DNA of 64,000 nt from Gemmatimonadota bacterium (GCA_965116475.1 OZ220691.1:32001-96000); one strand, 5' to 3'; positions 147 through 64,000 are shown, counted from the first letter of the stretch. Translations and numbers: made by a program. The notes: a model not told the origin generated them from the letters alone.

Positions 147-1670
147 TCAGTCCGTGGCCGCGGGCGCGGGCAGTAGACGGAAGATGTACGAAGGCGGCTC
201 GCCGTCCTCATACACCAACTCGAACCGGGTTTGGTACGCCTGAATCGCGGGAACGAGGTACCGCCCCGTCGTGCCGCTTATCTGATCCACGACCACGTAG
301 TCCGCGCCCATCTCCTCGAGGCCGCGCATCACGGAGGCCGGATCGGAGGAGAACGCGTACACATCGCCGGGGCGGCGTGCGTGCCAGTAGAAGAGACGCG
401 GCTTCCGGTTCGCGATGATTGCGTCCAGGGGCGTGTTATCCCGGGCCCAGCGGGCGGCCGCATACAGGCTCGCTTCGGCGGGGCGGTCGCACGGGCGCCC
501 GGCGCGATAGGCGGCGGCGCAGACGATGCGGTCCGGCGCGGTCTCCGCGACCCAGGCAACGCCGAACACGGCAACCACGATCGGGGCCGCCCAGCCGATC
601 CACGCCCGGGAGCGAGACGCCAGCCGCCACACGGCCACGAAGGCCAGGACGAGCAATACCGGCAGGAGCGGGAGAAGGAAGCGGCGGTCCGTCCACGCGG
701 GCGGCCAGGTCAGTATGACTCCCGTGTAGAGGAACGCGAACACTTCGGCGGGCCGCAAACCTTCGCGCACGCGCAGCGTCCAGCCGGCCAGAGCCGCAGC
801 CGCAACCGCCAGGCCGAGGACCATGGAAACACCGCTCGCCCCGCCGAGGGCGCCCGGGCCGGCGAGCGTCTGCGGGAGCACGGATTCCACGTAGCGCCAG
901 GAGTTGTCGGCGGCGCGGACGATGAGGCCACCCAGATCCACGTTCCCCGCCCCGGCGTCGTAGGGGTTGGCCAGCAGCAGTTCGGTCAGGTACCCGTCCC
1001 GGCCCGGCGCGGCCCACCGCTGGTAGAGCACCCATCCTCCGACGACCCCAACGGCGGTCCCCGCCGCCCCCAGCGCGCGGCGGCGGCCGTGTCCTTCGAG
1101 GAGCCAGGCGAGGGGCAGCGCGAGGAGCAGGGCGACGCCGGCGGTCCGGGTCATGAAGGCCAAGGCCGCCGCGGTCAGCGCGAGCACAACGCCCTTCCTG
1201 TCGTCGCGCAGCGCCAGCCAGAGCGCGAGCGTGACGAACAGCGTGAACGGGGCCTCGCTGAGGATGTAGTGGCCGTACTCCAGCAGCGTCGGGTTGACGG
1301 CCAGCACGCCCGCGGCGGCGAGAGCCGGACCCTTCCCCGCCAACCGCCGGCCGAAGAGCGCCGTGACCCAGACCACTCCCGCCGTGCACGCCAGCATGAG
1401 CACCTTCGCCACGATGACGCCGCCCACCCAACCCGACAGCGCAAGCAGCGACGGCAGCACAGGCGGATACTTGTCGTGGAGCGGCGTCCCCGGGAGATAG
1501 AGGTCGCGATACCCTTCTCCGGTCCTCAGCGCCTCCCCGAGGATGAGGTATGCGGCGTTGTCGCCGCCGGGAAAGAGCGTGGGCTCGAAGACGATCAGCC
1601 CCAGCAGGAAATGAAGGAGCGCCAGGCCCGCGGCGACAAGACTGAAGTTGTCCTTCCGCGGGGCGCTCAC
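147..1670 (-). CDS. Polytopic GT-C-fold glycosyltransferase (ArnT/PMT_2/GT39-like)
   Basis: First TM followed by a loop with GGDNAAYLILGEAL...KYPP. Also ILSEAPF, about 10 TM helices and a C-terminal soluble domain. Start re-set to GTG 1670 just after the GT2 stop. Confidence 0.75.
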   Translation of the reverse strand: MSAPRKDNFSLVAAGLALLHFLLGLIVFEPTLFPGGDNAAYLILGEALRTGEGYRDLYLPGTPLHDKYPPVLPSLLALSGWVGGVIVAKVLMLACTAGVVWVTALFGRRLAGKGPALAAAGVLAVNPTLLEYGHYILSEAPFTLFVTLALWLALRDDRKGVVLALTAAALAFMTRTAGVALLLALPLAWLLEGHGRRRALGAAGTAVGVVGGWVLYQRWAAPGRDGYLTELLLANPYDAGAGNVDLGGLIVRAADNSWRYVESVLPQTLAGPGALGGASGVSMVLGLAVAAAALAGWTLRVREGLRPAEVFAFLYTGVILTWPPAWTDRRFLLPLLPVLLVLAFVAVWRLASRSRAWIGWAAPIVVAVFGVAWVAETAPDRIVCAAAYRAGRPCDRPAEASLYAAARWARDNTPLDAIIANRKPRLFYWHARRPGDVYAFSSDPASVMRGLEEMGADYVVVDQISGTTGRYLVPAIQAYQTRFELVYEDGEPPSYIFRLLPAPAATD

Positions 1671-1672
1671 CG

Positions 1673-2599
1673 TCAACCGTCCCCGCCGCGTTTGAGGTCC
1701 TCGATCTCGTCGCGGAGCTGCGCCATCGTTTCCGCGAGAAATCCCAGGATGAAGAGGAGGAGGCCTCCCACGACCAGGAGAAGTACGAGCGTGAGCAGCG
1801 GGCGGTACCCGAGTCCGAAGCCGAAGCGCAGGACGAGGGCCGTGAGTCCCGTCACGCAGCCCGCCGCGATCAGCGCGAGGCCGCTCGTGCCGAAGAAGAG
1901 CAGCGGCTTGCGCCCGAACACGAGCTGGAACCACACCGACACCATGTCGAGCATCCCGATGAGGATGCGCCGACGCCCGGAGAACTTGGGTTCGCCATGC
2001 CGGCGCGGGAGGAGGTCGATGTCCAGTTCGCCGAGCCGGTATCCCCGGGCGTGGGCGAGCACGACGAAATAGCGGTGCCAGTCGTGCCGCAGCCGGAGGC
2101 CCCTGAGGACGTCGGCCCGAAAGGCCTTCATCGAGTTGAGGTCGCGCACGGGCACCTTGAAGATCGCGCGCGCGAGCCGGTTGTAGATGGACGACGTGAA
2201 GCGCTTCTCGTAGCGCCCCACCTTACGGCCCGCGACGAGGTCGTACCCCTCGTCCAGCTTCGCCGCGAAGCGCGGAATCTCTTCGGTGGAATGTTGCAGG
2301 TCCGCGTCGAAGAGGACGAGATATTCGCCGCGGGCCGCCGCCGCGGCGGTGAGCATCGCCTCCGTCTTCCCGCGGTTCGCCCGGTGTCGAAGCACGACGG
2401 CCCCGCCGCCCAGCCCCGCCTGCCCGGCCGCCTGCTCGGCGGCTTCGGCCGTCCCGTCGCCGGAGCCATCGTCGACCAGCACGACTTCCGCCGCGAGATC
2501 GTGCTTCGCGAACGTCGCCGCGAGTTCCGCGAACAGTTCGGGCATGTTCTCGGCTTCGTCGTACGCCGGGACGAGGACCGAAACTCTCGGGTCGCTCAT
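1673..2599 (-). CDS. GT2 glycosyltransferase, polyprenol-phosphate sugar synthase type (DPM1/ArnC/GtrB-like)
   Basis: VSVLVPAYDE, LVDDGSGDGT, FDADLQH (DxD) and two C-terminal TM helices. ATG overlaps the rpoN stop. Confidence 0.9.
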   Translation of the reverse strand: MSDPRVSVLVPAYDEAENMPELFAELAATFAKHDLAAEVVLVDDGSGDGTAEAAEQAAGQAGLGGGAVVLRHRANRGKTEAMLTAAAAARGEYLVLFDADLQHSTEEIPRFAAKLDEGYDLVAGRKVGRYEKRFTSSIYNRLARAIFKVPVRDLNSMKAFRADVLRGLRLRHDWHRYFVVLAHARGYRLGELDIDLLPRRHGEPKFSGRRRILIGMLDMVSVWFQLVFGRKPLLFFGTSGLALIAAGCVTGLTALVLRFGFGLGYRPLLTLVLLLVVGGLLLFILGFLAETMAQLRDEIEDLKRGGDG

Positions 2600-4061: not shown

Positions 4062-4787
4062 TCAGAGCCTGAAATCCTCCCCGAGGTACAGTTGCCGCGC
4101 TTCCGGATCGTTCACCAGGTGATCCGCCTCGCCCTGCACCAGGATCTTGCCCTCGAACAGGAGGTAGGCGCGGTCCGTGATCGACAGCGTCTCGCGCACG
4201 TTGTGGTCGGTGATGAGCACCCCCAGACCCTTGTCCCTGAGGCCGCGCACGATGCGCTGAATGTCGTCGATTGCGATCGGATCGACCCCGGTGAACGGCT
4301 CATCGAGCAGCAGAAACTTGGGCCGGGTCGCCAGCGCCCGGGTGATCTCCAGGCGCCGCCGCTCTCCCCCCGAAAGCGAATACGCCTTGTTCGCCCGAAG
4401 GTGCTTGATGGACAGTTCGTCGAGCAACTCCTCCAGGCGGTCGCGCCGCTCCTGCCGCGACATCTTCATCGTCTCGAGGATCGCCATCACGTTCTGTTCG
4501 ACCGTGAGCTTCTGGAAGATCGACGCCTCCTGCGGAAGATAGCCGATGCCGGCCCGCGCCCGCCGGTACATGGGCCAGCTCGTGAGTTCGTCGCTGTCGA
4601 GGTAGACGCGTCCCTCATCCGCCTTGAGCAGACCCACGATCATGTAGAAGGTCGTGGTCTTCCCCGCCCCGTTGGGGCCGAGCAATCCGACGACCTCACC
4701 CTGCCGCACCTCGATCTCCACATGGTTCACGACGCAGCGGCGCTTGAAGGAGCGGACGAGGCCTTCGGCCCGTAGTACACTGCTCAA
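4062..4787 (-). CDS. lptB: LPS export ABC transporter ATPase
   Basis: [45 protein letters not shown]; lies upstream of rpoN. Confidence 0.97.
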
Positions 4788-6742
4788 CGGGATCTCCCGG
4801 ATCTGAGGGCCGGAGACGCGCCGGACGTCGTGCGCCGCTCCCGTCCCGGTTGGTGGTTGCGCGCGGCGTGCTGCACGTCGCTCGGGCGGCGCCCGCGGCG
4901 GTGCACGGTGTCCGGAGGTGCGCCGACCGTGTCGGGCGGCGCCGCCGTGCTGTCGGGCCGGACATTCGACGTGTCCGATGGCGCGCCGAGCGAGTCGGCG
5001 GGGGCGGAGGCGCTGTCGGCGGCGGCTGCCGCACTGTCGGCCACGGCTACGCTGTCGGCCGCGGCCGCGCTATCCGCCGCCGACGGCGTCCCGAACACTT
5101 CGCGTGGCTCGAGGTAGGCGCCGATCGCGTGTTCTCCTTCGACTCCCGTGGGTGCTCCCGCCTCGAAGTCGATCTGGAGGCGCCGCGCCACGAGATAGTT
5201 CAGCGACGGTCGCGCGCTCGTCGTCGAATCCCGGACCATTCGGTAGAAGGCGCTGGCGTTTCCCTCGACCACGAGCTGTCGCATGAAGGGGTCTGGGGCC
5301 GGCGCCGAGTCCGCGGCGGGGACGGCGGAGCGCTCGAAGACCGCGATAAGCGTATCGCCGCGCGCCCAGTTCGCCGAGCCGTCCGTCGCGAGTTCGATTT
5401 CGGCCGGCTCATCGTCCTCCTCCGCGACTTCAGTGGTGTCCGGGGCCGCGGCGCCGGTATCCGCGCCGACCTGAGCGGAGTCCGCCGCAAGGGTGGCAGC
5501 GGTGTCCGCCGGGGGGCTGGCAGCGGTGTCCGCGGGGGCTGCGGCGGTGTCCGCGGGGGCTGCGGTCGTGTCCCGGGCTGGGGCCGCGGCGGTGTCCTGG
5601 GCGGCGGCCGCGGCGGTCGAGTCGCGGGCGGTCGGACCCGCAGCCGTCGAGTCGGGGGCCGCCAGCTCGGCGGCGGTCGAATCCACAGCCGTCGAGTCGG
5701 CGGCGGTCGAATCGGCCGGCTCCGGAGCCGCAGGCACCGCCCACGACGAGTCGCTCTGGACCGCGACCGCACCGCCGATGGCGTACGCCGTGTCGATCTG
5801 ACTCCCGTACATCACGAAGTGGATCGAGTCGCCGAGAAGCTCGTGGCTGCCGGAGACTGCCCGGCTCACACCCTCCCCGTGCGCCTGCAACCGCTCCACC
5901 TCGCGATTTGCCAGGTCGATGTCGATCACTTCCGCCGCCACCTCGAACCTCTCCCCGGACGCGTAGCCATCGCCAACGGCGTGGATCTCTTCGAGTTCCT
6001 GGTTTTGGGAAACGAACTGTATCGAATCGCCCTCGAGTCGGACCCCCTCGGCCTCGATCCACGGCTCGCCCCACAGGACGCCCAAACCATCGGCACGGGT
6101 CAGCAATGCGCTGTCCGCCCGGGCGCTCAGGTCGCTCCGATTGATGAACGCATCCCCGTAGAAGCGGGCCTCGTCCTCTCCGGCGAAGATGGCCATCTCC
6201 GATTCGACGGTGAACGGCTCCGGCGACTCGGTGTTCGTCGGATAGAACGTAACGGTCGGCCGCCCGGGCGCGGTCGTGACGGCGTCGACACCGGAAACGG
6301 CTCGCAGAAACTCCACGCGGGGGCCGAGGAGGGTAGAGCGATCCGTCAGGCGGACGAGTTCGACATCTTCTTCGGCGATGATGAAGTCGGAGAGCTGAAA
6401 GTACAGGAGGCGTTCCGAGTTCAGCGTCCTGATCGAATCTTCGTAGACGACCGCGCCGAGGAGTTCCACCTGTCGCGGCCCGTCGCGCTTTATCGCACTG
6501 TCCGCCTCCATCGTGGCGGTGCCACAGGTCCACAGGTACCGGCCGCTGAGCACGGTGACGTGCGCACCGGTCGGGTCACGGTTCGTGACGCTCCTCGTGT
6601 CGTCTTCGAGCGGGCGCCACCGGAGACTGCACTGGCCAAGCGCAGATCCGACACCGGCTTCGGGCTCCTGCGCGGCGAGCGGGCCGGTGAGGCAGACCGC
6701 CGCCGCGAGGCAGGTCGCAAACCCGCTGCGTCCGCGAGTCAC
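4784..6742 (-). CDS. LptA/OstA-like multi-beta-jellyroll periplasmic protein with low-complexity insertions
   Basis: Signal peptide (…GPLAA-QE), repeated OstA-like strands (ADSA, GDSI, GDTL), position between lptC and lptB. Confidence 0.75.
4900..5085 (-). repeat. Degenerate coding repeat giving (A/P)D(S/T)x array at the LptA-like C-terminus
   Basis: Translates to [60 protein letters not shown]. Confidence 0.8.
5431..5730 (-). repeat. Degenerate 15-24 bp coding repeats forming an internal Ala/Asp/Ser/Thr/Pro insertion in the LptA-like protein
   Basis: Near-identical units such as gcggtgtccgcgggggct on +; protein [16 protein letters not shown]...[21 protein letters not shown]. Confidence 0.85.
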
Positions 6743-7731
6743 CGGCGCGCCGCCGTCGTGGTATCGGGGGGCGCCGCCACGCTGTCCGGAGGGGTGACCG
6801 CCGTCGTGGTGTCCGGGGGCGCCGCCGTGGTGTCCGGTGGGACCGCCGCTGCCGTCGTGTCGGGCAACGCCTCCACGCTGTCCGGCACAGCCGCCGTGCT
6901 GTCCGCCGCCGCCGAATCCTGCGCCGGAAGCACGTCCGGATCGATCCCCTCCGCCCCAAGGTCGGTCTCTGCGGCCGCAGGATCGGTCTCCACGGCCCCC
7001 GGATCGACGCCCGCCGCGGCCGAGTCCCCTGCCGCCGGGTCAATCTCCGCCGCGGTCGAGTCCCCCAGGGCCGGATCGTCCGTGACCGGCTCCGAGGCAA
7101 CCGCCTCCCCCTCCGTGTCCCCGGCCGGCACCGGCGGCAGGGGGACGGACTCCGTGAAGGCGACTCCGGGGAGCATCTCGCCTTCCTGATTCAGGACGAT
7201 GATCGAGTCGAGCGCCGGGTCCGATTCGAACCCCGTCCCCTCGAGCGTCAGCCCCTCGACCCCCCGAAGGAGCCGGAATGCGGTATCGCCGTACAGGCGA
7301 CCCTCCAGGTTCCGATATTCGAGCCGCTCCGTCTCGAGACGCTGATCGTCCACCCGGTCTTCCACGACCACCTGCCGTTCGGCGTCGAGGTCCCCGCTGA
7401 GTTGGTAGAAGATCCCGAACTCCGCGGTGACTTCGGTCGATTCCAAGCCGCTCACATCGAAGAAAGTCAGGGTCATCCGCCGCAGGTGAATCTCGTTCCC
7501 CTCGCGCCATTCCGCCGTGTCGGCCTCCACGACGGCGCGCCGGATCCCATCGCGCGTGACGAACGTCCGCATCCCCTGCACCGCGGTATCCACCCCTTCG
7601 GGCAGCGGTTCGCTCGCGGTCGGAGGCCCATCGCCGGACCCGCACGCGGCGAAAAAGGGCAGTACCGACACCCAGGCGAACAGACCGAGCGCGCCATCGC
7701 GCCCCGCGCACCCCTGCCTTTCAACCCGCAA
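6739..7731 (-). CDS. lptC: LPS export periplasmic protein LptC with lipobox-like FAAC and a long acidic tail
   Basis: LptC-like core (VEADTA, EVTAEFGIF, RLETERLEY, LEGTGFESD) between kdsC and the lptA-like gene. Start uncertain (TTG 7731). Confidence 0.8.
   Translation of the reverse strand: MRVERQGCAGRDGALGLFAWVSVLPFFAACGSGDGPPTASEPLPEGVDTAVQGMRTFVTRDGIRRAVVEADTAEWREGNEIHLRRMTLTFFDVSGLESTEVTAEFGIFYQLSGDLDAERQVVVEDRVDDQRLETERLEYRNLEGRLYGDTAFRLLRGVEGLTLEGTGFESDPALDSIIVLNQEGEMLPGVAFTESVPLPPVPAGDTEGEAVASEPVTDDPALGDSTAAEIDPAAGDSAAAGVDPGAVETDPAAAETDLGAEGIDPDVLPAQDSAAADSTAAVPDSVEALPDTTAAAVPPDTTAAPPDTTTAVTPPDSVAAPPDTTTAARR
6745..7075 (-). repeat. Coding repeat array PD(T/S)x at the LptC C-terminus
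   Basis: [60 protein letters not shown]. Confidence 0.85.
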
Positions 7732-8323: not shown

Positions 8324-11621
<3,298 letters not shown>

Positions 11622-20790: not shown

Positions 20791-20973
20791 TCAAAAGTCG
20801 TCGATCTGAACGACCTCGCGGTCCGCGTAGTGGCCGCAGGTCGGGCAGACGCGATGCGGTCGTTTCGGGTCCCCGCACTTGGGGCACGCCTGGCGCGCGT
20901 TGTCCGCGGCCTTGTAATGCGTACGCCGCTTGCGCTTGCGCTGCTTCGACGTCCGTCTCTTGGGAACAGCCAT
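20791..20973 (-). CDS. rpmF: 50S ribosomal protein L32 (Zn-ribbon form)
   Basis: [21 protein letters not shown]...HRVCPTCG. Confidence 0.98.
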
Positions 20974-21060
20974 ATCGTCAACACACTCCTGGCAGCCATC
21001 GACTGGAACTCCGCGACGTTCGGGCGGAGCATGGCAACTGGCGCTTTTCGCGCCGGAATG

Positions 21061-21684
21061 TCAAGGAATGTCGCCCTCCGAAGCGCCCTTCGCGGCACCT
21101 TCGGAAGCGCCCTCCGAGGCACCTTCCGAGATACCCTCCGAACCTCCTCCCAGACCCTCCAGTGCGGCCCAGCGCGCATCGGGTTCCGGCGGCGGGCAGC
21201 GACACGCCTGTTCCGCGCGCCGCGCGCCGCACGCCGGGCACAGTCCCGGGCAGTCGGCCGAGCACTCCACCCAGGCGGGCGCATGGACCCACAACTCCTC
21301 GCGGAGAGGCCCCGCCAGATCCAGTTCGCCCGACCCGGTGTCCAGCGCCCAAACCCCCTCTTCCCCCGGCGCGACCCGGCCGGGCGGACGGTACAGCGCG
21401 GCCCACTTCGCGCGTACGCGAACCGGCGTCGGATCGAGACAGCGGCGGCACTCGACGGTGGCCCGCGCGGCGAGCGTGCCGCGGGCGCGAACCGCGGACC
21501 CATCCGCCTTCCGGACTTCGACCTCGACATCGATGTACTCGAAGGTCAGCGGCAGGACGCCGAGCGAGTCACCCGGCGCCTCGACGCGAAACGCCCGCTC
21601 GATGGGGCCGGCGTCGAGCCCCGCAAGTCCGATGCGCGCGGGCTCCGCCGGGTCGGGCGATGGCGATGCGCGCCGCGGACTCAC
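21061..21684 (-). CDS. yceD: YceD/DUF177 family protein
   Basis: ECRRCL, CSADCPGLCPACG, DARWAAL; upstream of rpmF. Confidence 0.88.
   Translation of the reverse strand: MSPRRASPSPDPAEPARIGLAGLDAGPIERAFRVEAPGDSLGVLPLTFEYIDVEVEVRKADGSAVRARGTLAARATVECRRCLDPTPVRVRAKWAALYRPPGRVAPGEEGVWALDTGSGELDLAGPLREELWVHAPAWVECSADCPGLCPACGARRAEQACRCPPPEPDARWAALEGLGGGSEGISEGASEGASEGAAKGASEGDIP
21073..21144 (-). repeat. 12-bp coding tandem repeat x6 (GSEGISEGASEGASEGAAKGASEG) at the YceD C-terminus
   Basis: Units gccctccgaagc / gcccttcgcggc / accttcggaagc / gccctccgaggc / accttccgagat / accctccgaacc. Confidence 0.8.
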
Positions 21685-49515: not shown

Positions 49516-49995
49516 TTACGGGCCGGAGTTCCCGCTTCCCGAGTCGGGATCGCCGCTTCCGGAGCCCGGGTCCCCTTCCTCTCCCTCCGTCCCGTCGGGC
49601 ACCGCGGCGCCCTCCTCGGACCCGGGAGCGGCGGCTTCGTCGGACGGAGCTGCGCCTTCCCCGGGCTCGGGGGAGATCTCCAGGAGCGAAGCCGGCGCTT
49701 CGGGGAGGCTTTGCTGGCCGGGAAGCCCCTGACGCAGGATCGATTCGGGCGCCGTGTCCGGACGCGAGGAGAGCACGGTCAGCACGAGCGCGAGGAAGAG
49801 GAAGCTCCCCCCGCCGTACCAGCTCGCCTTCGTCAGCGCGTTGGCCGCCTGGCGTCCTCCCATGAAGGAGTCCGTGGAGGAGGAGGCTCCGCCGAAGGAG
49901 GCGGCGAGCCCGCCGCCCTTCGCGGACTGGAGAAGGATCATCACGCACAGCACGAGCGCGATCAGCGATATCAATACGATCAGGAACGTGAACAT
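49516..49995 (-). CDS. secG: Preprotein translocase SecG with acidic Pro/Gly tail
   Basis: ILLQSAKGGGLAASFGG, LTKASW; follows tpiA. Confidence 0.93.
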   Translation of the reverse strand: MFTFLIVLISLIALVLCVMILLQSAKGGGLAASFGGASSSTDSFMGGRQAANALTKASWYGGGSFLFLALVLTVLSSRPDTAPESILRQGLPGQQSLPEAPASLLEISPEPGEGAAPSDEAAAPGSEEGAAVPDGTEGEEGDPGSGSGDPDSGSGNSGP

Positions 49996-62140: not shown

Positions 62141-64000
62141 TCAATTGAAGAACTCCCAGCGCAGGCCGAACACGTTGAGCTGCCGGGGGAAAAGCGCGCC
62201 CTGAAAATCTCCGATCTCGTCCGCCCCCAGGTTGCCGAACCGCCAGAAGAACCGAAAGTCGGCGATCTTGAACATCAGGTGTCCGCCCATCCAGCTGTCG
62301 GCTTCCAGCATCGCCGGGTCGGCCGAGCCGGGAACCGGGACGAGCCGCGTCCCGCGGCGGTCGATGTGCAGCGACACCCAGATGCGAAGGTTCTCGTCGA
62401 AGAAGGAGTCGGTCAGGTACAGCTCGGTGCGGAACAGACGGTCCGGAAGGAAGAGGGTCTCGGCGCCGCGCGAGTCGAACTTTCGCCACGAGGCGCGCAG
62501 GCGGATCGGCTCCACGCCCCGCAGCAGCACGCCGAGCGGCACGACCGGCCCGTCGAAGCGCACCTCCAGCGACGTCAGGTCCACCTCCCCGGAGTCGGCG
62601 ACGACGAGCCGGTCGAAGGGAGCGCCGAAGCCGATCTGCCGGTCCAACCGCTGCTCCGAGTAGCGCCCGCCGAGGTTGAACGGTCCGATCTCGAAGGCGG
62701 CAGCGGCGCCGCGAGAATCGAACCTGACGCTGTCCGCAAGCAGGAATTTCGCCGTCCCTAGGCTGTCGAGCCCGGCATGCCGCGGGAAGCCGATGCCCCG
62801 GGTTCCCTTCGCGGTGAACGCCCTCAGTTCGATCGGAAAGCGGAGCGTTTCCCGGAAGGCCAGCCCGGCGCGCCAGGATTTGGTCGGGAATTCGTTCCAG
62901 CTCGCGAGTTCGGCCCCGCCCTCGAGCGCTAAGGGCCCGATGGGCTGCCAAGCGGAGAGATCCGCGAGGCGCGATGCGTAGGCGTCGCGCCCGGCGAAGC
63001 GGAGCCCCATCGAGATCCCTCCCGACCCGGGCCGAGCCGAGAAGCGCAGACCGACGCCGTCCGCGCCCCACTGAGGCGGAGAAATGCTGTCCGGGAGGTT
63101 CTCGACGGCGTCCGTGAAGGTCGTGGCCTGGCCGTAGGCCTCGAACTGGGCCCGCCGCCCGAGGTTCGCCCGCGTCCGCAGCACGAACTCCCGGCGTGAG
63201 AATTCAAGCGTGTCGAGCCCGGTGCGTTCGATGTTCTCCGAGCGGTAGTCGAACTGAACCCCGAAGTCGTTCGAGCGCGGCATCCACGAGAAGCGGCCCT
63301 GTACCGCGAACCGGTTCTGATCGTTCTGCCGATCCCGGACGTCGTACCGTTCGAAGGAGGCCTCTACGTTGGACGCGCCGCCCAGCGAGTTGGCGAAGAC
63401 GGCGTCGAGGATCTCGGAGCGCGGGTCTCCGGTCAGTCCGCTGACGCGCGAGTAGGCCTGGACCCCGTCGTGGCGAATGAGGTCGACATCGATGACGAGG
63501 CCGTCCGCGCCGCGGTACACGCGCACCCGGTCGACGTAGTTCAACGACACGCGCCGGAGGTCCCCCTGGCTTCGGGAGAGGGGGAGGACTTCACGACCGT
63601 CGATGTAGAGGGTCACGAGCCCCGGTCCGAAGCCGCCGTCGAAGACGTGGTGCGGTCCCTGGAAGAACTCGCCGCGAACGCCCGTGATGCCCGGAACGTG
63701 CTCGAGCAGGAGTTCGAGGAGGGTAAACGAGGGCGACGCGTGCACGCACTCCCGGTCGCAATCGAAAACCTCGTGCGTGGGGCCGCGCAGGCCTGTCAGC
63801 CGCTCCGGAAAGCTCTGCGCCCGCCCGGCCACGCTGTCGGCGAACGCGGCGAGGACCGAGTCGGGGACGACTTCCAGGCTGTCCGAAACCGGCGGCAGGC
63901 TGTCCGGGACGGGTGGATCCTGGGCATGGGCCGCGGAGACGCCCCCGACCGCGAGCAGAAGCGCGCCGAGCAGCTGAACGCCGAGCAGCCGAACGCCGAG
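62141..64000 (-). CDS. Outer-membrane beta-barrel protein with a TonB-plug-like N-domain (putative porin); 5' end outside the window
   Basis: Frame stays open to 64000: LGVRLLGVQLLGALLLAVGGVSAAHA-QDPP (signal peptide). Plug-like LLEHVPGI..LYIDG..VDRVRVYRG; C-terminal barrel signature FGLRWEFFN. Confidence 0.7.
   Translation of the reverse strand, partial: LGVRLLGVQLLGALLLAVGGVSAAHAQDPPVPDSLPPVSDSLEVVPDSVLAAFADSVAGRAQSFPERLTGLRGPTHEVFDCDRECVHASPSFTLLELLLEHVPGITGVRGEFFQGPHHVFDGGFGPGLVTLYIDGREVLPLSRSQGDLRRVSLNYVDRVRVYRGADGLVIDVDLIRHDGVQAYSRVSGLTGDPRSEILDAVFANSLGGASNVEASFERYDVRDRQNDQNRFAVQGRFSWMPRSNDFGVQFDYRSENIERTGLDTLEFSRREFVLRTRANLGRRAQFEAYGQATTFTDAVENLPDSISPPQWGADGVGLRFSARPGSGGISMGLRFAGRDAYASRLADLSAWQPIGPLALEGGAELASWNEFPTKSWRAGLAFRETLRFPIELRAFTAKGTRGIGFPRHAGLDSLGTAKFLLADSVRFDSRGAAAAFEIGPFNLGGRYSEQRLDRQIGFGAPFDRLVVADSGEVDLTSLEVRFDGPVVPLGVLLRGVEPIRLRASWRKFDSRGAETLFLPDRLFRTELYLTDSFFDENLRIWVSLHIDRRGTRLVPVPGSADPAMLEADSWMGGHLMFKIADFRFFWRFGNLGADEIGDFQGALFPRQLNVFGLRWEFFN
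63964..64000. repeat. 15-bp tandem repeat within the signal-peptide coding region
   Basis: cgccgagcagctgaa cgccgagcagccgaa cgccgag (truncated by the window edge). Confidence 0.7.

Follow-up and report, generated by a model that had tools for sequence, protein, structure and literature searches.

The lipopolysaccharide (LPS) transport genes lptC, lptA and lptB lie next to one another on the minus strand of a 64,000-nucleotide stretch of DNA from a marine Gemmatimonadota bacterium (GCA_965116475.1 OZ220691.1:32001-96000; hereafter the window), and the first two encode proteins that carry dense arrays of the tripeptide D-[ST]-[AILVMT] (written D-[ST]-Phi below). The window has a G+C content of ~70%, and its minus-strand genes include kdsB, pyrG, kdsA, kdsC, a 330-residue open reading frame (ORF), a 652-residue ORF, lptB and rpoN. 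Directly upstream of lptA-lptB, lptC is joined to lptA by a 4-nt overlap, as is lptA to lptB (4062..4787, minus strand; TIGR04406, 1.8e-111), and the order lptC-lptA-lptB is kept in related loci. For comparison we used 39 Gemmatimonadota loci (L numbers), which together with the window hold 711 called genes, few of them exported; a first alignment from the locus scan (A1, 28 sequences) contained no conserved stretch, and the closer set A2 was used instead. Based on the homologue search and the locus scan, the nearest relatives belong to Candidatus Palauibacter. Gemmatimonadota fall within the FCB group in the NCBI taxonomy, and the host is a member of that phylum, not of Bacteroidota, in line with the preliminary description of this DNA, which had proposed a probable Gemmatimonadota and FCB relative.

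The 330-residue ORF (6739..7731, minus strand) was identified as LptC from a sub-cutoff family match, a predicted jellyroll fold, structural searches and the names of its orthologues. It scores 33.5 bits (2.8e-8) against TIGR04409, under the curated cutoff of 38, and 18.4 bits (0.0018) against PF06835, under the cutoff of 21, and orthologues at 59-70% identity contain PF06835 and are named LptC by NCBI. An AlphaFold2 (AF2) model predicts a single beta-jellyroll at residues 45-180 (7192..7599, minus strand) with a predicted local distance difference test (pLDDT) score >90, and the best six Foldseek matches of this model in the PDB were all LptC chains (TM-score 0.68-0.81, root-mean-square deviation 2.0-5.2). 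The N-terminus is hydrophobic and is followed by Cys30 (7642..7644, minus strand) in an AAC context (FFAAC/G, lipobox-like), a residue invariant in the 39 aligned LptC sequences, which suggests that this LptC may be lipoprotein-anchored rather than held by a transmembrane helix of the Escherichia coli type.

The 652-residue ORF (4784..6742, minus strand) is a long lptA/ostA-type gene by family profile, fold and synteny, with a signal peptide (...PLAA/QEP) that is conserved in the family consensus. The window protein itself gave no Pfam match at 0.01, its N-terminal part scoring 0.061, and no NCBIfam match; distant members of its family of 116 homologues, all of which share the long form, carry PF03968 or PF13100. 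Searched against the PDB, the family profile matched LptH, LptA or LptD in 13 of 13 cases (best LptH, 2.9e-4), and the AF2 model matches LptD, LptC, LptA and LptH structures. Some 380 jellyroll residues are arranged in two all-beta parts with pLDDT >90 (residues 40-330, 5753..6625, and residues 457-544, 5111..5374, both on the minus strand), instead of one jellyroll of 130-180 residues per chain, and a disordered insert of about 110 residues (residues ~335-445) divides them; the final ~40 residues are strongly basic. The protein is therefore a long LptA type, whose single chain spans about three lengths of E. coli LptA. The assignment of both genes in the preliminary description is upheld by the fold matches, the family profile and the orthologue names, and by fold, synteny and orthologue names lptC-lptA-lptB encode the periplasmic LPS bridge of a Palauibacter-type Gemmatimonadota.

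Counted by regular expression on the translated minus-strand ORFs, the D-[ST]-Phi motif occurs 14 times in LptC, with 10 copies, all D-[ST]-[ATV], in the C-terminal tail (residues 224-325; 6757..7062, minus strand), and 29 times in LptA, with 12 copies in the insertion (residues 344-437; 5432..5713, minus strand) and 8 near the C-terminus (residues 557-613; 4904..5074, minus strand). The approximate tallies of 10, 12 and 8 made by hand in the preliminary description were thus exact, and its block boundaries were correct to within ~20 bases. Composition-matched shuffling, which it had proposed as a control, likewise bears out the excess: when the residues within each block were shuffled 20,000 times, the mean counts were 1.60 (LptC tail), 1.81 (LptA internal) and 0.96 (LptA C-terminal), with highest values of 7, 8 and 6; in no block was the observed number attained in 20,000 shuffles. 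Asp is followed by Ser or Thr at 10 of 16 positions in the LptC tail, 13 of 15 in the LptA insertion and 9 of 9 in the LptA C-terminal block. Among the 68 genes of the window, enrichment was confined to LptA (29 against 3.5 expected), LptC (14 against 2.0) and a Plug-domain receptor (8 against 1.7) considered below.

All three blocks are predicted to be disordered (pLDDT 40-55; ~40 in the LptA insertion and ~50 in the LptC tail), and their third-codon-position G+C content of 0.84-0.88 in the annotated frame indicates that they are translated in that frame. Beneath each of them, Tandem Repeats Finder detected degenerate DNA repeats of period 15-48, matching at 62-83%. Because of this repeat structure, the residue shuffles overstate how surprising the counts are and alone are no proof of selection; the use of the triplet across homologues is more informative in this respect.

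In low-complexity sequence from the 116 LptA homologues, divided into four identity tiers from >66% to ~25%, Asp is followed by Ser or Thr in 77, 51, 63 and 68% of cases by tier, as compared with 16%-20% expected from composition, and D[ST] is in turn followed by Ala, Ile, Leu, Val, Met or Thr in 91, 85, 91 and 92% (39%-48% expected). At this third position Pro makes up 1%-2% (10%-15% expected) and Gly 0%-4% (6%-10% expected), and Leu is three- to fivefold above expectation. Thr accounts for 25%-37% of the residues after Asp and is used in a third to half of sites, and the residue before the triplet is usually Pro or Ala. The motif is also directional, exceeding its mirror image 6-19 fold (708, 167, 283 and 169 forward copies by tier against 115, 17, 21 and 9), and Glu is not used in place of Asp: E-[ST]-Phi occurs just 12, 9, 14 and 8 times, including the second tier, in which Glu is commoner than Asp (545 versus 394) and yet yields only the 9 copies.

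The preliminary description had held that the triplet is constant and its spacers variable, and the alignment of 41 close LptA homologues agrees, with the motif Asp 0.93 identical and the Ser/Thr and third positions each 0.96 conserved by class as compared with 0.60 for the spacers, although MAFFT favors Asp-Asp columns in repeats and may inflate the 0.93 and 0.96 figures. Codons for the motif Ser come from both TCN and AGY, families that interconvert by single steps via Thr. Selection on the triplet is evident beyond repeat descent. The tails of 36 LptC orthologues hold 0-36 triplets in differing units (PPDTTAA, LPDSLEA, RDSLVAPPDTTVA), with the same triplet throughout. The longest are those of L016 (8532-10004), L013 (8787-9992) and L015 (9317-10399); a 490-residue LptC made of RDTLVAPPDTTVA units holds as many as 36 triplets. 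Some of the units in these extreme tails are degraded to D-K-T or LEELVAPP, which points to ongoing repeat turnover.

Low-complexity sequence of other proteins from the same loci served as a control. In RpoN, 217 Asp gave 9 D[ST] pairs and 5 motifs, and in a family 2 glycosyltransferase (GT2) 121 Asp gave 1 pair and 1 motif; the corresponding numbers were 679, 451 and 402 for LptA and 376, 280 and 257 for LptC. YceD (20795-21684, minus strand; PF02620, 7.1e-20), followed by an rpmF-like ORF in what is the usual yceD-rpmF pair, has a SEGA-type tail ending in GGGSEGISEGASEGASEGAAKGASEG that is free of the motif, just as first described, and other cytoplasmic low-complexity regions are likewise almost without it. 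Observed/expected (O/E) ratios per family in the syntenic loci are non-independent owing to shared ancestry, and the apparent depletion in KdsA, FabF and GT2 was not used as evidence; a high ratio for the acyl carrier protein stems from two triplets per protein, one of which, DSL, we take to lie at the phosphopantetheine attachment site. The CTP synthase PyrG (9142-10863, minus strand) ends in a short tail containing a conserved W-A-D-S-A, as do its orthologues in L001, L002 and L007; since one triplet is thus present in a cytoplasmic protein, the motif by itself cannot be taken as diagnostic. Clusters of at least three triplets among the 711 genes were found only in LptA (33/38), LptC (27/37) and the Plug-domain protein (1/1). 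The comparison of exported with cytoplasmic proteins that the preliminary description had proposed for the whole genome covers these 711 genes. Within the data at hand, the arrays of the triplet were restricted to periplasm-facing proteins.

The Plug-domain (TonB-dependent-receptor-like) gene (62141-64000, minus strand; PF07715, 1.4e-6) extends past the end of the window, and its product bears four D-S-[LV] triplets directly after the signal peptide (63830..63904, minus strand; motif count). In this family, 48 of 48 homologues carry 2-7 triplets in the first 110 residues, located just after the signal peptide in all but P0168, an N-terminally truncated fragment, and homologues at 27-31% identity have 5-7 triplets in pentapeptide repeats. 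Plug-domain receptors are accordingly a third periplasm-facing family, with arrays built independently. These N-terminal triplets could also double as a TonB box, or be mistaken for one.

Further carriers were sought with a profile of the LptC tail, which retrieved 225 proteins at E <=0.001 from 1.84 billion representatives. Among the matches listed, 110 of 146 new proteins had an array by our criterion. Fifty of these 110 were chosen for Pfam analysis, in which 23 matched, 19 of the 23 with domains typical of exported proteins and 4 without. The 19 comprised OstA (4), Big_5 with or without CarboxypepD_reg (6), Fib_succ_major (3), Laminin_G_3 (2) and single cases of CBM6, polysaccharide deacetylase, cytochrome c and cohesin; P-D-S/T-x arrays serve as linkers in these other proteins. 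P0185, P0202, P0220, P0225, P0289 and P0290 make up one family, which has Big_5 and CarboxypepD_reg domains at the N-terminus as well as long, Lpt-like PPDT/ADS arrays. A search of the ESM Atlas with the LptC tail gave no usable match.

Among bacterial O-glycosylation systems, that of Bacteroidota alone is known to be guided by a motif, in which Asp is required, Glu is not tolerated (in Bacteroides fragilis), the third residue is L/I/V/T/A/S/M, Gly at that position abolishes glycosylation, and the targets are non-cytoplasmic (PMC12871550). The Porphyromonas gingivalis system favors periplasmic domains, and LptD and LptF are among the proteins that it modifies (PMC8729774). The resemblance to this sequon pointed out in the preliminary description withstands comparison, as Asp and not Glu is used here and the third position takes hydrophobic residues or Thr but not Gly or Pro (PMC12871550). 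That the arrays are glycosylated by a system of Bacteroidota-like specificity is the reading we favor, at about even confidence. The array sites are probably exposed outside the cytoplasm, judging from the signal peptide, the lipobox and the known location of Lpt jellyrolls and receptor N-termini.

Three disordered segments hang off the bridge, at the LptC C-terminus, in the gap between the two parts of the LptA jellyroll and at the LptA C-terminus, each a fast-evolving degenerate tandem repeat in which the triplet is retained. On the favored reading, the triplets would act as acceptor sites of a periplasmic O-glycosylation system with Bacteroidota specificity. Once exported by Sec, each segment would bear many glycans side by side and form a bottle-brush, which would extend and hydrate it and keep periplasmic proteases near the bridge from attacking it. 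That a glycosyltransferase recognizes the triplets, that a glycan is attached and that it works as a brush are all steps that we infer. The broader proposal, that Palauibacter-type Gemmatimonadota run a Bacteroidota-type system and have amplified its sequon into mucin-like arrays sheathing every seam of the LPS bridge, is put forward tentatively, with confidence somewhat below even.

Several points weigh against glycosylation of the arrays. In Bacteroidota, the oligosaccharyltransferase (OTase), the ligase and the core flippase have yet to be discovered (PMC12871550), which places an equivalent system beyond homology testing. Known Bacteroidota glycoproteins carry ~2 sites on average (257 across 145 proteins; PMC8729774), and no described precedent for arrays of 10-36 was found, supplementary site tables being left aside. 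As the arrays are tandem repeats, recurrence of the triplet is partly by descent, and the alignment bias mentioned above bears on its apparent conservation. Array carriers are limited to three families in the loci, and a signal-peptide family of the syntenic loci, 'exp535', had an O/E of only 1.7 and no arrays. SecG (49516-49995, minus strand) has a 65-residue Pro/Glu/Gly/Ala/Ser-rich C-terminal tail, of uncertain sidedness, without D-[ST]-Phi. The clade L030-L038 lacks the LptC tail altogether (LptC of 151-202 residues) and has 0-5 clustered LptA triplets, so that the arrays are dispensable for Lpt function. The tail-profile search is circular for the motif and also retrieves Asp-free eukaryotic mucins, and when the LptC tail was the query of a word-indexed search, 15 of 15 matches were LptC orthologues (181-578 residues), with no other carrier family.

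The arrays may instead be unmodified acidic, Pro/Ala-rich spacers, acting as entropic bristles or polyproline-II rods with no enzyme reading the triplet, which would then recur by repeat descent together with a structural preference such as Asp/Ser/Thr capping of Ala-rich turns. The degenerate repeats and predicted disorder of all blocks fit this explanation, as do the freely varying tail length and copy number and the missing tails of one clade, and glycosylation of the arrays is itself a conclusion drawn from sequence. We regard the unmodified-spacer explanation as unlikely, though deserving serious consideration. Descent fails to account for several findings: arrays that cannot be aligned and differ in their units share one grammar, which recurs in an unrelated protein family; Pro and Gly, although abundant in these regions, are kept out of the position after D[ST]; the forward motif exceeds its mirror 6-19 fold with Glu unused; and the motif is missing from cytoplasmic low-complexity sequence of the same genomes.

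A second alternative is that the arrays are glycosylated, but by another system: either a PglL/O-antigen-ligase-type OTase or a PMT-like membrane glycosyltransferase of the GT-C fold that uses a polyprenol-phosphate monosaccharide, possibly the gene pair downstream of rpoN. The first of these genes, a candidate only, is the polyprenol-phosphate-sugar-synthase-like GT2 (1673..2599, minus strand; PF00535, 1.3e-27), which overlaps the rpoN stop, matches ArnC (1.8e-28), AglJ and PgfS over the full length, has two transmembrane segments at the C-terminus, and follows rpoN in 33 of the 33 loci that reach that far. The second, likewise only a candidate, encodes a GT-C membrane glycosyltransferase of the PMT_2 type (147..1676, minus strand; PF13231, 4.7e-7, 30.6 bits versus a cutoff of 26.1) with at least eight predicted transmembrane segments, and is present in 30 of 39 loci; a sequence search of the PDB with it returned 0 matches at E up to 1. 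Related loci (L001, 14138-21264; L002, 13907-21719) add a GT4, a methyltransferase, an LPG_synthase_TM protein and an 800-residue, weakly YfhO-like protein. The rpoN-side cluster is predicted to attach sugar at the periplasmic face of the membrane.

The conserved position of this GT2/GT-C pair beside lptCAB-rpoN and the additional genes of the related loci speak for such a system, as does the fact that PglL acts on disordered Ala/Pro-rich periplasmic regions (PMC8423747). PglL, however, follows no rigid sequon and favors Ala at -1 and Ser over Thr (PMC8423747), whereas Asp stands at -1 here and Thr is common. The GT2/GT-C pair is also retained, with the gene order, in clade L030-L038, so that it does not co-vary with the arrays, and the GT-C has no PDB relative by sequence. 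A role in LPS modification, of the ArnC/ArnT-like kind, is at least as likely for the pair as protein glycosylation, because the cluster sits among LPS genes (kdsABC and lpt) and occurs in the array-free clade. We consider glycosylation by another system improbable. As a candidate for the glycosyltransferase of the arrays, the pair was rejected: it has no specific synteny support and is found in the array-free clade as well.

The TonB-box consensus is D/E-T-x-V-V, which the Plug-domain triplets resemble, and Lpt jellyrolls join by strand pairing. A third alternative, in which D-[ST]-Phi is a short motif for peptide binding that adds a beta-strand onto a periplasmic partner, the arrays being multivalent docking sites rather than sites of modification, would suit both this strand pairing and the Plug-domain triplets, which stand at the expected place of a TonB box and read DSLEVVP or DTLxV, but is very improbable, as most Lpt units would make poor strands (Pro every 5-7 residues, Ala/Thr after the triplet, as in PPDTTAA), up to 36 copies per tail are unparalleled among TonB boxes, and LptC and LptA have no reason to bind TonB.

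Glycosylation by a system of Bacteroidota-like specificity, if confirmed, would place a mucin-like, multi-site form of this modification on an essential envelope machine. Clade L030-L038 is a natural contrast group, and array-rich Palauibacterales set against their array-free relatives would provide a comparative handle on the missing transferase; comparing the gene content of the two with that of Bacteroidota could expose the long-missing O-oligosaccharyltransferase. If the arrays are unglycosylated, the strict D-S/T-Phi grammar in periplasmic disorder needs another reader, itself new. A survey of the literature on Gemmatimonadota O-glycosylation, glycosylated LptA/LptC and Palauibacter found no description of this feature. 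The phylum, the mucin-like multi-site format and the Lpt-bridge carrier are new, and the sequon grammar is known. Apart from the arrays, an LptA of three lengths and a possibly lipoprotein-anchored LptC illustrate wide variation of the Lpt bridge outside Proteobacteria.

Compared with E. coli, the beta-jellyroll fold and the order lptC-lptA-lptB are the same, and the differences lie in an LptA chain of 652 residues, with about three jellyroll lengths and the 110-residue disordered insert, and in an LptC that has a tail of 150 residues and an invariant, lipobox-like Cys that may stand in for a plain transmembrane helix. With the Pro/Thr/Ser repeats of eukaryotic mucins the arrays share a Pro/Thr/Ser/Ala-rich composition, disorder and fast-varying tandem repeats, and the top match of the tail profile was a real mucin-like protein; mucin repeats, however, have no obligatory Asp, and GalNAc-transferases follow no such sequon. 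Actinobacterial protein O-mannosylation employs Ppm1 and Pmt on Pro/Thr/Ala-rich linkers, and is similar in that a GT2 and a PMT-superfamily GT-C are encoded near Pro/Ala/Thr-rich disordered acceptors. To our knowledge PMT systems have no Asp requirement, and the gene pair here fits ArnC/ArnT-like LPS modification equally and shows no co-variation with the arrays. PglL-type systems (Neisseria, Burkholderia, Acinetobacter) also act on periplasmic, disordered, Ala/Pro-rich acceptor regions, but with Asp at -1 and common Thr the arrays depart from the PglL-type target pattern. The Bacteroidota system belongs to another phylum and modifies one or a few sites per folded protein, as opposed to the dense arrays of 8-36 in disordered repeats described here, which are known from their sequence; the two nonetheless have in common the tripeptide grammar, Asp and not Glu at -1, the exclusion of Gly and Pro at +1, extracytoplasmic targets that include Lpt components (LptD and LptF in P. 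gingivalis), and membership of their hosts in the FCB group.

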